A DNA stretch of 64,000 nucleotides, taken from the NCBI GenBank assembly GCA_000092065.1, contig CP000586.1; one strand, 5' to 3'. Of this stretch, positions 468-6,416 are shown piece after piece. This DNA comes from Ostreococcus lucimarinus. Its lineage: Eukaryota. Position 1 is the first letter of the stretch, and every line of letters starts with the position of its first letter. The position numbers were made by a program, and so were the translations under genes. The notes under the pieces were generated by a model, which did not search any database, was not told the DNA's origin, and saw only the letters and a program-made list of their open reading frames with translations.

Positions 468-2210
468 TCACTTGTTCACGAGATACCGCAAAAAGTATCG
501 ATCGCGCTGATTCCCAAGAGTCCACATGCTGTCGAAATATGAAGATCCGTAATCTTCCGGCACCCCACTTACGAACGGACGGTCGACGTGAGGGTGATCC
601 GGGATGAACAACGCGCGAGCCTTGTAAAGCTCGCGACACATGCGCATGGCGTAGGCAGAGTCGTCTGTGACGCAAATTAAGTGACCTCCCGGCTTGAGTA
701 CGCGATACACGTCTCGGATGAATTCTGCTTTAATAAGCACTTGCGAGCTCCCCACCCATTCTGGAGGGTCGGGGTAATTGACGTAGACTTCGCTCGCCGT
801 ATTCATAGGCATCCGTCTCGCGTCAAAAGCGTCACTCGCCATGCCACACACGAGCGCGAGATTTGCGTCCACGCCCGACCGAAGGGCTTTCATCCACGTC
901 ATTGCGACTCTGTTTCGACGCATTTCCACACCGATCCATTGGATTTTGGAATCTTGTTTCGCCTTGCGCGTGATCCAGTCACCGTGACCGCTACACACTT
1001 CGACGCGCACATCCGAATCGCCGGCGATGTTCGGCGGCCTTTCCGCCTCGTCTTCGCCAACTATTCGCACATTTGGCGCCCGATCAACTCCTTTCATGGC
1101 TTTATCGGCGATTTGTTTCCTTCTCGCGAGCGGTACGTCTCTCATGTACGCCTCGACTTCTTCAATTTCCCTAGACGCGTCTTGCGCTCGTAGCTGTAGG
1201 AACAATTGCACGCTCTTCGACGGCGCGTCTGGATCTTCGACGTCATCATCGTCGTATCGAGTCGTCGCGCCCGCTTTCGCCGCGGATTTTTCGGCGTCGA
1301 CGTCGAGCGTTGCTCGGGCGTCGCGACACGCGTTCGCCGCTACGTCTGCGTCGGGCATCATTAAACTAGAAGCTACCGCCAACGCCACGTACGACTGCGC
1401 GGTTACCACGATCCCTTCGCGCTGAGCGTCTCGGATGAAATCCAACGCCTGCTGCACCATGAGCTCACCGCATAGAGTTTTGATGTAATACTCACACACC
1501 GTCGCGTCCAGCGATGCATGGCGTTCGCGCATCATCTCCAGACATTTCGACGCATTCTTCACGTCGCCGTATCGCACGCAATTTCTCAGCAACGTCGCGT
1601 ACGTGCGCTGATTTGGTTCAACGCCGCAATCTATCATCTCACGTATCACTGATCGCGCCCGATCGATATGGCCATTCTGGGACTCTCCCTTGACGAGCAC
1701 GGTGTACGCTACCTCGTTCGCTTCGACGCCCGCGTCGCTCATCGCCTTCCAAATCGTTCTCATTTCCATAACCTCTCCCACGCGCGTGGCTGCGTTGAGC
1801 ATATTTGTGTAGGAATACACGTTCGGCGTCAGGCCAACGCGAGAGATGCGTTCAAACGCTTCCTTGGCGAATCCGTATTGCTTATCGTTCCCGAAATCCT
1901 TGAGCAGCCGATTGAAAAACTTTACATCCTTCACCTTCATCGCTCGCTTGAGCAACGTCTGCGCCTCTCGCGCCCGTTTGCGATTTTGCTTCACCGCGCG
2001 TTTCATGCCTTCATCGAGCGAGGCCAAGTACGAGGTAGATAGCCCGCCATCGGTGTCACCGTCGTCTCGAACAACTTTTTCGCTCGGCGCGTCAACGTCA
2101 TCGCGCGCGCGTTTGCGCGTCGCCGCCGCGGCGTTTCTTCGCGCGGCGCGATTCTGATTCTTCTTTTCGTACTTTTTCTTCTTCCGCGTCGCATTCGACG
2201 TCCGATCCAT
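468..2210 (-). CDS. PPR-repeat protein fused to a TrmB-like tRNA (guanine-N7) methyltransferase domain
   Basis: Track ORF 468..2384 begins at a TTG. The first ATG is at 2210 (MDRTSNATRKKKK...). The middle part has degenerate ~35-aa PPR-type repeats (LTPNVYSYTNMLNAATRVGEVMEMRTIWKAMSDAGVEANEVAYTVLVKG; HIDRARSVIREMIDCGVEPNQRTYATLLRNC). The C-terminal ~190 aa look like TrmB (VEVCSGHGDW, WIGVEMR, VNYPDPPEW in place of FPDPW, LKPGGHLICVTD). Stop TGA at 468-470. Confidence 0.75.
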   Translation of the reverse strand: MDRTSNATRKKKKYEKKNQNRAARRNAAAATRKRARDDVDAPSEKVVRDDGDTDGGLSTSYLASLDEGMKRAVKQNRKRAREAQTLLKRAMKVKDVKFFNRLLKDFGNDKQYGFAKEAFERISRVGLTPNVYSYTNMLNAATRVGEVMEMRTIWKAMSDAGVEANEVAYTVLVKGESQNGHIDRARSVIREMIDCGVEPNQRTYATLLRNCVRYGDVKNASKCLEMMRERHASLDATVCEYYIKTLCGELMVQQALDFIRDAQREGIVVTAQSYVALAVASSLMMPDADVAANACRDARATLDVDAEKSAAKAGATTRYDDDDVEDPDAPSKSVQLFLQLRAQDASREIEEVEAYMRDVPLARRKQIADKAMKGVDRAPNVRIVGEDEAERPPNIAGDSDVRVEVCSGHGDWITRKAKQDSKIQWIGVEMRRNRVAMTWMKALRSGVDANLALVCGMASDAFDARRMPMNTASEVYVNYPDPPEWVGSSQVLIKAEFIRDVYRVLKPGGHLICVTDDSAYAMRMCRELYKARALFIPDHPHVDRPFVSGVPEDYGSSYFDSMWTLGNQRDRYFLRYLVNK

Positions 2211-2945: not shown

Positions 2946-5258
2946 TCAGGCAAACTCCATAAGAGCTGCGGCGAGATGCGTGAGCTCCTGACCGTACGCG
3001 ACGCGAATCAGTCGCCCGACGACATCTCTTGAATATTCACCCGCCAAGGCGTGTCCTACCGCGAGCAAGAATATTCGCTCGCTCGATCTGATGGGTCTGA
3101 GGCCGAAATGTCGATTGAGCTCCGTCACCATCTCCACGTGTGAGCTGGCGATTATCGGGAAGACCTGAGACGTGCCATTCGTCTCGTTCGAAGCCTGAAA
3201 CACAAAGTGACCTTGCTCTTTTAATTGCCGAGACGCAGTACTGAGCACGGAAATCGTGACTTCGTATGTCTCGAAGTCGTCGGATCGCTCGGAGACCGCG
3301 TGCAAATCGGCGTCGTTCAAGTTCGTAATCAATTCGACGTCGATCATTTTGCGCGCCTCTCTTCGCGGGCGCGTCGCAGCCTGAAGGCGTTTCATGGGTC
3401 TACCACCCATGGCTGGACGCGTCGATCCGCTACCGACGCGCACTGTCATGTCTGATTCATTCAACCTTCTACCGATGAACGTAATGGCGCGTGCGCTCCC
3501 CACCGCGACGGCTACGGCGCTGGAGCCGACGATGCAAGGTGCGACTGCTTGAGTGCTTTGCGTCCCTACGTGCATGAATTTCAATGGACCTTGCACTCGA
3601 GCGAACGTATCTCGTTGATTCCGAGTAAAGACGTCGACTTGAGTAACGCACTCATTGGAGCTAGTCGACTGCAGTTTTTTCAAAAACATCGCGAACTCGC
3701 CGTTCGGTGTGTTAATGAGCTCGATACCTCGCAACCAAACCTCTTGCGCAGAAAAGTCGACGTCAACCGACTTGGACGGCGATGCGTTCACTTCATCGGT
3801 AAAAAGCTCCGCAAATTCGGTGAGTTGACGTTTCATAGACTCTTTCTGTCTGTTGGTTTGCTTAGGCTTGAACGCGACTCGCACGCCGTCCATGTGAGCT
3901 CTCATCTCTTGAACGCTCATGTGCAGCTCTTTGGAGATGTGTGCGACTTCTTGAACGCTTATGCCAAGCGTCGACGAACTTCGCATCTTAAATTCCGACA
4001 AGTCGCTCTTTTGGGTGTCTTTGCCGAGCAAATATTTATCCGTCGCACGACGCCAAGCTTTGAAGAGTAAACCGCGGCGCACCGCGAACGCGTCCAAACC
4101 CGTTGCTACCAAACTCAGGCTCAGTCTACCGCGTAAGTAAGCAGTAACACGCGACATCGCATTCAAGTGATACCGGAGCGCGAGCGGCGCGAGCGTCGCG
4201 ACAACCCATCCTTTGACGCTAAAGTGCATACGTATGCCGCGATATATCGGAGCGATGTTGTCCAGCCCGACATAAAACGTGGGATACAAGATAAAATTCA
4301 GGACACAGCACGCGAGCGCGGCTTTAAACCTTTCCATGGCGCTGATGAGCGCCATAGCCACGAGCGGTGGCGCGACGAGTAACGTCACAATTTGAGCCGG
4401 GTCAAAGCTGTGCCCAGAGTATTTATAACCGACGATGTTCAACGTAACCGCGGGATGACGCATCACCGACTTGACGACGTGTCGTATGAGAATACCAGCG
4501 TCTTCAAAGTCGTGCATTGGTCGACCGTGCACGTCTATACGGAAGAAACCAATCAAAATGACGTAATCGATAATGGTGGCGAGTGGCAAGTATCGCGTGT
4601 ACAGCCCCTTCAGGAACAACGATGGATCTTGAGTATCGTTGAGTGTTACGTGCGCCACTCCCTGCACGCGCACGCCTCTACACATAAGATAATTTTCGAG
4701 CGTTAACGCCACCATGAAGTAAATCCACATGTAAAACCGGCGCACGTTCAAACCGTGTCCTGGAGACATCCCTAACACGTACCACAAAATCGCGCTGGAG
4801 ACGCGTCGCACCGCGCGCTCGAAGAGGCCCGCCTTTTCGCCGCGCGGCGCTCGGTTTCGTCTTCGATTATCGCGCTCTAAATATTGCAGCACGGCAGCCG
4901 GTTTTATGAACCGTCGCGCCTCGCCCGTCGCGTCTTCCTCCGTCGATCCTCCGTCGTTCGACGACGCGTCCCCTCTTTCCTTTTGTACCCGTTCGCGTTC
5001 GCGTCGTCTGCGCGTCGTCGCGCTCCCATCTCGTTTCTTCTTCGTAGCCTTCGTCGACGACCGCGGCGACGGTGACCGCGACTTAAGCGACGTCGACGCT
5101 CGCGTCGTTCGTCTTGTCCGCATCACTCGCGCATCGTCCGTACCGTCGTCGATAACGTCACCGACGACGTTTACGCAGTCCACGTCGTCCAAGTCCGCGC
5201 CCGCCTCGCGCGGCGCCGTCCCGCGCCTGGTGCGCGACCTCGACCGCGTCGCAGGCAT
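2946..5258 (-). CDS. Multi-pass membrane protein with large C-terminal soluble domain, unknown family
   Basis: Track ORF 2946..6014 runs antisense through the MDH gene at its 5' end. The first plausible ATG outside MDH is at 5258 ([10 protein letters not shown]...). It encodes a basic low-complexity N-terminus, then about 6 hydrophobic helices ([91 protein letters not shown]), then ~400 aa of mixed-composition soluble sequence. No family motif recognised. Confidence 0.6.
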
Positions 5259-5408
5259 CCCGTCTCGCGCTCGACGTCGAGAGGTTTCGCGCGTCGCGCG
5301 CGCGCGTTTGACGGACGCTGCCGCGATCGACGACGCGGATCCGTCCCGTGGCGCACGTCGCGTTCGCGTGGTCACTTCGACGCGTTCGAAGCGCGCGCGA
5401 CCGCGACG

Positions 5409-6416
5409 ATGCCCGCGTCCACGGTCGATGACGTCGTCACCGTTCTCATCACCGGCGCGGCGGGGCAAATCGGGTACGCGCTCGCCCCGATGGTGTGCGC
5501 GGGCGCGGCGACGGGGCCTGGGAAGAAGATTGCGTTGAAACTGTTGGACGTCGAGTTCGCGAGCGAAGCGCTGCGAGGGGTGAAGATGGAGATCATGGAT
5601 TGCGCCTTCGACGCGTGCGTCTCGGTGGACGTGTTCACGGATTGCGAAAAGGCGTGCGAAGGCGTTGACGTGGCGATCATGGTTGGCGGGTTTCCGCGCA
5701 AGCAAGGCATGGAACGCAAGGACGTGCTGGGGAAAAATGTGGCGATTTACAAACAGCAAGCGAGCGCGTTGGCGAGCAAGGCGAAGAAAGATGTGAAGAT
5801 TGTCGTTGTCGCCAATCCCGCGAACACGAACGCGAAAATTTTGGCGAAATTCGCGCCGTCGATTCCCAGAGGCAACGTCACGTGCATGACGCGGCTCGAT
5901 CACAACAGAGCGCTCGCGCAGTTGGGTGAAAGAAGCGGTAAAGCGACGATAGAGGTGAAGAATGCGATCATTTGGGGGAACCATTCGTCGACGCAGTACC
6001 CGGACGTGAATCACGCCACGATCGAGGGTAAGCCCGCGCGGGAGGTGATTGGAAATGACGCCTACCTCGACGGCGATTTCGTAGACGTCGTGCGCGCGCG
6101 AGGCGCGGCAATCATCGAGGCGAGAAAGTTGTCATCAGCGCTCAGCGCGGCGAGCTCGGTGTGTGACCACGTGTACGATTGGATTCACGGCACAAAAGAA
6201 GGTGAATGGACTTCAATGGGAGTCATCTCTGACGGGTCGTACGGCGTCCCAGAGGGGCTGGTGTACTCTTTCCCGGTGACGTGCACGGGTGGCAAATGGC
6301 AAATTGTGCAAGGGTTGAGCATCGACGAGCGCTCGCGGAAACTCATGGACGAGTCCGCGAAGGAGCTTACGGAGGAGTTTGAGTTGGCGGAGCAATGTTT
6401 GGCAGAATCTGCGTAG
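5409..6416 (+). CDS. MDH: NAD-dependent malate dehydrogenase, cytosolic (MDH1) type
   Basis: ATG at 5409, 335 aa. It has the Rossmann motif [20 protein letters not shown], the catalytic-loop TRLDHNRA, and [12 protein letters not shown]. These are hallmarks of cytosolic-type MDH. Confidence 0.93.

Follow-up and report, generated by a model that had tools for sequence, protein, structure and literature searches.

Proteins that join pentatricopeptide repeats (PPRs) to a tRNA methyltransferase domain were described as the PPR-TGM subfamily by Manna & Barth 2013, BMC Res Notes 6:525 (PMC4029402), with 3–7 PPR motifs followed by a C-terminal tRNA guanine-N7 methyltransferase domain, and the family was predicted to make tRNA m7G46. 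The 22 proteins of their list come from slime moulds, Entamoeba, Perkinsus, chlorophyte, cryptophyte and haptophyte algae, and diatoms, and include two proteins of Ostreococcus tauri and one of Ostreococcus lucimarinus. In chlorophytes, the same authors distinguished a “traditional” PPR-TGM paralogue from a diverged one that has a CCCH zinc finger in addition, and as they found no other than the CCCH paralogue in O. lucimarinus, they suggested that the traditional one had been lost there (PMC4029402). The founding member, PtcE of Dictyostelium, has been described bioinformatically only. Here we analyse a 64,000-nucleotide (nt) window of the O. lucimarinus contig CP000586.1, to which all position numbers refer, where a complete, intron-less coding sequence at 468–2210, on the minus strand like all features of this gene given below, encodes a PPR-TGM protein of 580 amino acids (aa), to which all residue numbers refer. 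We think it probable, though by no means certain, that this is a nuclear-encoded, single-polypeptide, traditional PPR-TGM, working as an S-adenosylmethionine (SAM)-dependent guanine-N7 RNA methyltransferase with its RNA binding moved to a basic helix and a PPR module.

In the bacterial enzyme TrmB of E. coli, alanine at R26, D144, H151, R154, R155, D180, T217 or E220 brings the activity below 10%, with D144A, R154A and R155A abolishing it in multiple-turnover assays, and both R155 and T217 contribute to tRNA binding (PMC10130221). The T179/D180 pair (D133 in A. aeolicus) has been proposed as the catalytic centre that positions the guanine (PMC6320965, PMC10130221), while bacterial TrmB has its main determinant in the T-arm (PMC6320965). 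The fusion of PPRs to a TrmB-type domain is not itself new: it has been a named subfamily since 2013, and the original prediction for this locus, made from the DNA letters alone, presented as a new idea what had already been published (PMC4029402).

One Polypeptide with a PPR Tract and a TrmB-Type Methyltransferase

The reading frame, which opens with the first ATG at 2210 and closes with the stop codon at 468–470, is unbroken, and upstream of this ATG it stays open as far as 2384 with no ATG within that stretch. The protein aligns end to end with 23 orthologues; the exact 580-aa protein was also found in a public read-set (Logan) assembly, on a contig that ends 252 bp past the stop codon, and a form with 99% identity is widespread across NCBI, JGI and ENA data. 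Both halves match their families far beyond chance. Pfam PPR_2 scores 81.4 bits (E 5e-23; gathering score 30), with PPR, PPR_1, PPR_3 and PPR_long also above threshold and the PPR matches spanning roughly aa 96–270, and Methyltransf_4 (PF02390) scores 70.6–72.9 bits (E 1.4e-19; gathering score 24) over aa 401–531. The NCBIfam PPR model TIGR00756 passes its cut-off as well, and PF17177, the PPR_long of PRORP, matches aa 146–229. The PPR tract consists of four canonical and two degenerate motifs, that is, six 35-aa repeats at aa 96–305, and the TrmB-type class I SAM methyltransferase core occupies aa 400–580 (471–1013).

An AlphaFold2 model with 24 orthologues in the alignment, having a mean predicted local distance difference test (pLDDT) score of 80.9 and a predicted template modelling (pTM) score of 0.79, contains six helix-pair repeats (12 paired helices), the first helix of each beginning precisely at aa 96, 131, 166, 201, 236 and 271, respectively, and after them a two-helix bridge and the alpha/beta methyltransferase domain. 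In Foldseek searches of the PDB, the N-terminal half retrieved designed PPR proteins and PPR10, while the C-terminal half retrieved the TrmB structures 3dxy, 3dxx, 1yzh, 7nzj and 2fca with template modelling (TM) scores, normalised to the target, of 0.68–0.73 and root-mean-square deviations of 2.9–3.8 Å. The values were 0.72 and 3.5 Å for E. coli TrmB (3dxy), about 0.7 for the B. subtilis and S. pneumoniae enzymes, 0.67–0.68 for METTL1, and about 0.55 for the A1408 rRNA methyltransferases.

The fusion is not a gene-calling artefact, because more than 50 orthologues share the same PPR plus methyltransferase architecture and because both domains occur in P0022, an O. mediterraneus transcript assembly with the label “complete”. 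The original prediction had a PPR tract and a TrmB-like domain in a single open reading frame (ORF), and so we found them, with profile matches for both halves (PPR_2 81.4 bits, PF02390 70.6 bits) in one unbroken frame, and with the two parts on one transcript in O. mediterraneus instead of on separate ones.

The Methyltransferase Active Site Is Kept and Its Basic Loop Is Replaced

Residues were mapped by HMMER alignments to solved TrmB structures (3dxx, 7nyb) and by a profile alignment of the 149 best relatives drawn from a search of 1.8 billion proteins, and conservation was counted in 24 orthologues. Motif I, the SAM-binding loop, is kept as EVCSGHGDW at aa 404–412 (975–1001), aligning with EVGTGKG of B. 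subtilis TrmB; its E404, C406, G408, G410, D411 and W412 are invariant, and chlamydial-type relatives show E.CSGNG.W. The acidic residue that ends strand beta-2, which is the ribose-binding position of class I methyltransferases, is E429 (924–926), again invariant and aligned with B. subtilis E69. T515-D516 (663–668), the equivalents of E. coli T179/D180, are invariant in 24/24 orthologues, and so is D517 next to them. The equivalent of E. coli T217-K-F-E220 is S557-Y-F-D560 (531–542), with conservative substitutions, where S557, Y558 and F559 are invariant and D560 is at least 90% conserved, within a pattern, YG.S[YF]F[DE]..W, that also occurs in chlamydial-type TrmB. The equivalent of E. coli D144, D481, is likewise kept and invariant. 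The absence of SAM-binding residues, by which the original prediction would have been undone, is therefore not what this protein presents, with E404/G408/G410, E429 and D481 all aligned and invariant.

The region that has changed is a divergent loop at aa 478–492 (735–779), NYPDPPEWVGSSQVL, where the alignments to 3dxx and 7nyb place G487 at E. coli H151, Q490 at R154 and V491 at R155, so that all three residues are lost. The basic loop DPW..RH.KRR of TrmB is replaced by DPPEWVGSSQVL, the replacement of H151/R154/R155 can be written as PDPPEWVGSSQVL, and the tryptophan of DPW is also lost. Residues 481–491, with pLDDT below 50, are the sole low-confidence stretch inside the modelled methyltransferase domain. 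Checking by hand showed that nt 735–779 encode NYPDPPEWVGSSQVL; VNYPDPPEW is present at aa 477–485, and the earlier observation that the canonical FPDPW had become YPDPPEW was right, this motif being aa 479–485.

When compared with the Micromonas/Bathycoccus-like orthologues, the methyltransferase core has 53% identity and the PPR tract 54%, and both halves of the protein are under strong purifying selection. Since the core is conserved as much as the PPR tract, and since the catalytic positions are kept, the pattern of residues speaks for an enzyme that is active but binds RNA differently, and against a domain in decay.

Loss of the Basic Loop Accompanies the PPR Fusion

Among the 149 relatives, the canonical loop, defined as DPW plus at least 4 basic residues, was present in 22, and all 22 have an N-terminal extension shorter than 100 aa and no PPR. 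The relatives with at least 250 aa before the methyltransferase core number 62 of the 149, among them those of Protostelium, Planoprotostelium and Acrasis; PPRs are found in 60/62 and the canonical loop in 0/62, and in a sample of diverse long relatives Pfam detected PPR together with PF02390 in 10/10. In the column equivalent to R155, many non-Mamiellales members (82/125) have Arg, His or Lys, and the Mamiellales orthologues Val or Cys. As judged from these alignments, loss of the basic loop goes together with PPR fusion among the 149 closest relatives, and this association appears to be new. Such a coincidence implies that the PPR module is required for substrate recognition instead of being an add-on.

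The bridge between the two halves, aa 331–375 (1086–1220; SKSVQLFLQLR...), has S331, S333, V334, F337, R341 and E353 invariant, is common to eukaryotic PPR-TGMs, and is missing from bacterial TrmB. Because profile matches to distant PPR-TGMs begin at profile position 1–5 and those to bacterial-type proteins only from about position 58–70, and because the PPR arrays are collinear with those of Amoebozoa and Heterolobosea homologues, the comparison suggests that the fused architecture arose once. Before the bridge lies a poorly conserved acidic linker, aa 306–330 (1221–1295), with pLDDT below 50 at 317–324 and 16% identity to distant orthologues.

The PPR Array and the Basic Helix

No other part of the protein is as conserved as the basic helix that precedes PPR1, aa 58–95 (1926–2039), LDEGMKRAVKQNRKRAREAQTLLKRAMKVKD, which is modelled as a helix at 67–93 with pLDDT 86–95. 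It contains NRKRAR.AQTLLKRA, has 67% identity to the Micromonas/Bathycoccus-like orthologues, and keeps R77, K78, R79, A83, Q84, T85, L86, L87, R89 and A90 invariant.

Positions 5 and 35 of each repeat were read in the standard register in the 24 orthologues, and this manual register was confirmed by the AlphaFold2 helices. In the PPR code reportedly worked out by Barkan in 2012 and Yin in 2013, T/N at these positions is said to mean A, S/D or T/D to mean G, N/D to mean U, and N/N to mean a pyrimidine. PPR1 (aa 96–130; 1821–1925; helices 96–106 and 109–124) has N/N, for a pyrimidine, with N5 in 24/24 and N35 in 21/24 orthologues. PPR2 (aa 131–165; 1716–1820; helices 131–143 and 147–159) has T/N, for A, in 24/24, and PPR3 (aa 166–200; 1611–1715), the best Pfam PPR match with PF01535 at aa 167–197, has T/N, again for A, in 24/24 orthologues and also in 53/65 distant PPR-TGMs. 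PPR4 (aa 201–235; 1506–1610) is A/D in this protein and in 5/24 orthologues, S/D, for G, in 17/24, and mostly N/D, for U, in distant PPR-TGMs, giving Y-A-A-U in the latter. PPR5 (aa 236–270; 1401–1505; helices 236–248 and 252–264) has a non-canonical E/T with E5 in 24/24, and PPR6 (aa 271–305; 1296–1400; helices 271–284 and 289–314) is a degenerate capping repeat with V/D, its specificity positions being variable.

Read in this way, the specificity residues of PPR1–4 would spell about 5'-Y-A-A-G-3', and in the sequences compared they are invariant across Mamiellales, which appears to be a new observation. The tRNA T-loop has the consensus C56-R57-A58-N59, which would fit the Y-A-A-N of the PPR code and offers a candidate lead, while the engagement of T-loop bases in tertiary pairs weighs against it.

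The N-Terminus and the Cellular Compartment

The N-terminal tail, aa 1–57 (2040–2210), is highly charged, with RKKKKYEKK...RKRAR followed by an acidic run, has pLDDT below 50, and is not conserved (14% identity to distant orthologues). Its first 40 aa comprise 7 K and 8 R, 5 D/E, and one residue among L, I, V and F. Orthologues too have N-termini with K/R clusters mixed with acidic runs, and the Micromonas-like ones have instead an acidic-plus-basic motif, PEWEVIPDDVLVPRRT.RRHRVV. The GC-rich Micromonas-like orthologues P0029, P0033, P0034, P0036, P0039 and P0046 have a conserved N-terminal PEWE[VI]IPDDVLVPRRTARRHRVVASDVQVFG that the Ostreococcus proteins do not have.

The segment does not resemble a transit peptide, being Lys/Arg-rich, with acidic residues and almost no hydrophobic ones, and lacking conservation; its composition would be closer to that of a nuclear localisation signal or of an RNA-binding tail. 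In the subfamily survey, the Mitoprot score of the O. tauri PPR-TGM without zinc finger was 8%, and PPR-TGMs were listed in Entamoeba, which has no organellar genome (PMC4029402). By analogy with other systems, in contrast, the chlamydial ancestry of the enzyme domain, discussed below, and the precedent of PPR proteins would argue for an organelle. The original prediction had taken the basic N-terminus to fit organelle or nucleolar targeting; the Lys/Arg richness is real, with 15 K/R in the first 40 aa, and a presequence-like composition was not seen. Its further proposal of a methyltransferase directed to an organellar RNA finds no support in a tail with 14% identity, nor in the 8% Mitoprot score of the O. 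tauri protein.

Proposed Function and Alternative Explanations

We propose that the traditional PPR-TGM of O. lucimarinus would transfer the methyl group from SAM to N7 of an RNA guanine, as TrmB does, that the basic loop of TrmB has probably been swapped for an uncharged and probably flexible one, and that, with this loop replaced, substrate binding and selection would be supplied by the N-terminal module, formed by the basic helix aa 58–95 and PPR1–4. The most likely substrate is tRNA at G46, for which we would give about even chances. Redirection of substrate choice by the PPR tract would be compatible with the loss of the basic loop and with the invariant PPR specificity residues. A more far-reaching version, that throughout the clade the basic loop has been given up and the basic helix and PPRs have become obligatory for substrate choice, with the conserved code (Y-A-A-U in the family and Y-A-A-G in this lineage) reading a defined element, which could be the T-loop of tRNA (C56-A57-A58-N59) or else some specific site outside tRNA, seems doubtful to us. 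If it were true, the PPR-TGMs would be natural, code-addressed m7G writers, and the targets or compartments of the two Mamiellales paralogues would differ. An enzyme really addressed by its PPR code would also offer a natural model from which PPR-guided m7G writers might be designed, and as Ostreococcus tauri is genetically tractable, the target RNA and the compartment can be directly addressed.

Several points weigh against the proposed enzyme. With the TrmB equivalog model TIGR00091 the protein scores 56.1 bits against a cut-off of 112.65, and with the other TrmB equivalog models about 30 bits or less, and as all NCBIfam models of this kind stay below cut-off, we rejected the label of strict TrmB orthologue. 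The equivalents of R154 and R155 are missing, even though the alanine mutants at these positions abolish multiple-turnover activity in E. coli TrmB, and therefore the activity and substrate of the PPR-TGM could differ from those of TrmB. With four informative motifs, the PPR array has very low sequence specificity, insufficient for naming a target. Moreover, single-stranded RNA is required for PPR binding of the canonical kind, and in a folded tRNA it is available only in the loops. In A. aeolicus, R108, the R155 equivalent if the numbering offset that we infer is correct, has been implicated in AdoMet binding (PMC6320965). Finally, our literature search found no PPR-TGM that had been assayed or localised, and a 2026 review still calls the function “predicted”.

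The alternative with most in its favour, which we nevertheless hold to be unlikely, is a site-specific methyltransferase that is sent to an organelle and guided there by its PPR tract to one plastid or mitochondrial RNA (an rRNA, an mRNA or a single tRNA) and not to tRNA G46 in general. Most characterised PPR proteins act within organelles, and chlamydia-derived genes of algae and plants often serve plastids (PMC4029402); besides, the PPR specificity residues remain invariant over the Ostreococcus/Micromonas/Bathycoccus-like divergence, the generic tRNA-binding basic loop of TrmB is lost with a score below the TrmB equivalog cut-off, and two Mamiellales paralogues could serve two organelles. 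However, the N-terminus is Lys-rich with some acidic residues, almost free of hydrophobic residues and non-conserved, the Mitoprot value in O. tauri is low, and Entamoeba, lacking an organellar genome, has PPR-TGMs too. Moreover, about 4 informative repeats confer about 4 nt of specificity, too little for a unique site, and the collinearity of the PPR array between eukaryotic supergroups suggests that the target is a universal one, tRNA for instance. An inactive pseudo-methyltransferase, with the TrmB fold retained only as an RNA- or protein-binding module on a PPR protein, could account for the lost H151, R154 and R155 equivalents, the predicted disorder of the loop and the score below the equivalog cut-off. 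It is improbable, given that motif I, E429, D481, T515-D516-D517 and S557/Y558/F559 are invariant and D560 nearly so, that these positions are largely conserved in the 149 relatives too, and that a core as conserved as the PPR tract has the pattern of an active site under selection.

Very improbable is a different chemistry, such as that of rRNA methyltransferases making m1A or m7G, for example those of the NpmA/KamB A1408 family, which in structure is the nearest neighbour of TrmB. The sequence matches to NpmA, NpmB and Kmr are weak (E about 0.005–0.04), although Foldseek also retrieved Kmr and NpmB1; PF24675 gives 13.8–15.9 bits against a cut-off of 60, the TM score is about 0.55 against about 0.72 for TrmB, and the TrmB-specific D481, T515-D516 and SYFD are conserved in a core with 36% identity to a bona fide chlamydial-type TrmB. 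This relationship was rejected for being far below the family cut-off and a poorer structural match than TrmB. As for two adjacent genes or transcripts merged by read-through, only the low-confidence acidic linker at aa 306–330 could be adduced, and we regard this as next to impossible in view of the unbroken frame, the same architecture in more than 50 orthologues as well as in Amoebozoa and Heterolobosea, the O. mediterraneus transcript with both domains, and the conserved helical bridge joining the halves, with a model whose pTM of 0.79 would imply a defined inter-domain arrangement.

Ancestry of the Methyltransferase Domain and Paralogue Identity

No zf-CCCH match was obtained with Pfam in the PPR-TGM protein, which ends with its methyltransferase domain, and its identity to the CCCH-type representative P0241 is 39% in the methyltransferase and 26% in the PPRs; it is therefore the traditional paralogue. 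Among the members listed in the subfamily survey, O. tauri XP_003079628, which likewise has no zinc finger, is probably the nearest and a putative orthologue. The top-ranked canonical relative, P0256, shares 36% identity over 173 aa of the methyltransferase core, and the relatives of P0256 at 44–58% identity are almost all metagenome-assembled genomes of Chlamydiota. By this similarity ranking, as distinct from a tree, the methyltransferase domain would be of chlamydial ancestry, in agreement with the published proposal.

Those PPR-less relatives that have the same non-basic loop mostly look like truncated gene models. One of them, P0195 (373 aa, from an environmental contig), is complete although it has no PPRs; its N-terminus resembles a transit peptide, the helical bridge is shared, and the loop is a non-basic DPPVWHGSRMRL. 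Its homology search returned 12 relatives, every one of them from a short environmental contig, and no matches in plants or in named algae. Land plants have the chloroplast-predicted TrmB-family protein At5g17660 beside Trm8/Trm82 and no PPR-TGMs, and given the lack of plant matches in the P0195 search, no connection was made between At5g17660 and the clade of P0195-like proteins and PPR-TGMs.

A Gene at the Chromosome End That an Older Assembly Probably Missed

The window begins with a telomere array of 35 perfect CCCTAAA units at 1–245, which marks the chromosome end (Tandem Repeats Finder: period 7, 35.0 copies, 100% matches), CCCTAAA being the C-strand of the plant/green-algal type of telomere. 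Between this array and the stop codon there is a subtelomeric spacer of 222 bp at 246–467, where only short mechanical ORFs and none credible were listed, and into which the 3' untranslated region (UTR) and terminator of the gene must fit. With only these 222 bp in between, the PPR-TGM gene is the terminal gene, as the original prediction of a last gene before the telomere had it.

In an Ostreococcus orthologue of 71% identity (L082/L083/L084, 6001–13845), the upstream neighbours are syntenic, namely a divergent small gene, a large gene without Pfam match and malate dehydrogenase, yet at least 5 further genes follow downstream, among them an HMG-box gene, an Rpb7-like gene and one for a 1200–1766-aa protein with guanylate cyclase and PBP domains. 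Since this orthologue is syntenic and nevertheless chromosome-internal, telomere adjacency is lineage-specific, the chromosome end differs between Ostreococcus lineages at this locus, and we rejected adjacency as a functional feature; it is probably incidental and without functional meaning.

The main consequence of the telomere-adjacent position is probably that an older assembly missed the gene. The plus-strand neighbour at 2241–2882 encodes 213 aa and corresponds to XP_001418128.1, annotated as “partial” in the reference, which has 209 aa, starts at residue 5 of the 213-aa protein, and lies on an 818,664-bp reference record. For this reason, we infer that the 2007 CCE9901 chromosome sequence probably starts at about window position 2253, some 40 bp past the start codon of the PPR-TGM gene, which in that case would lie outside the assembly instead of having been lost. 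The 99%-identical PPR-TGM protein is encoded in a later NCBI record, whose contig measures 826,362 bp. The traditional PPR-TGM paralogue is thus present in O. lucimarinus, an apparent and small correction to the literature that appears to be new. Within the 64-kb window, tblastn returned only the gene itself, with no second PPR-TGM copy and no CCCH paralogue, and ARAGORN found no tRNA or tmRNA genes in 1–64000.

The PPR-TGM gene and its plus-strand neighbour are head-to-head, with start codons 30 bp apart (2210 and 2241), leaving extremely little room for promoter and 5' UTR to the pair, and GC-rich short tandem repeats occupy 2242–2311, within the first codons of the neighbour. Farther inward, between the 213-aa gene and malate dehydrogenase, a called gene of 770 aa without Pfam match lies at 2946–5258 on the minus strand, and in the mechanical ORF list it is lengthened to a 1022-aa ORF, 2946–6014, that runs antisense through the malate dehydrogenase gene. 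The latter, at 5409–6416, has a product identical to XP_001418129.1 of O. lucimarinus CCE9901. The GC content of the window, taken in 2-kb steps, is strongly heterogeneous, at about 50–52% at 12–18 kb and about 70% at 58–62 kb, with a mean near 59%.

Comparison with Known Systems

The protein shares with the described PPR-TGM subfamily the PPR tract, the C-terminal chlamydial-type methyltransferase and, as a nuclear chlorophyte gene product, the lack of the CCCH finger. The copy in our window and the missing basic loop of TrmB are both absent from the paper that described the subfamily, whose authors argued for a function beyond methylation that the PPRs add.

With chlamydial-type TrmB (P0256; Parachlamydiales/Waddliaceae), it has E.CSG.G.W, VTDD and YG.S[YF]F[DE]..W in common, whereas the stand-alone chlamydial-type enzymes, of about 230 aa, are without PPRs, basic helix or bridge and keep FPDPWPKxRHAKxRL. 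The E. coli and B. subtilis TrmB enzymes (EC 2.1.1.33; 3DXY, 7NYB) have the same fold, the SAM motifs, and equivalents of D144, T179/D180, T217 and E220, but at about 20% identity, and the equivalents of H151, R154 and R155, besides the N-terminal R26 region, are missing from the O. lucimarinus protein.

Protein-only RNase P (PRORP), in which a PPR array is fused to an NYN nuclease, follows the same design logic of a short P-class PPR array joined to a tRNA-acting catalytic domain, although that catalytic domain is a different one. We rejected a specific relationship to PRORP, since no PRORP structure appeared in the top 50 Foldseek matches and the PF17177 match reflects generic P-class similarity. 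In Trm8-Trm82 and METTL1-WDR4, a TrmB-fold unit also needs a second module for productive tRNA binding, which is an analogy of principle with the delegated binding that we propose here; in these complexes, however, the partner is a separate WD40 subunit instead of a fused PPR array, and their catalytic subunit matches our model with TM 0.67–0.68, slightly below bacterial TrmB.

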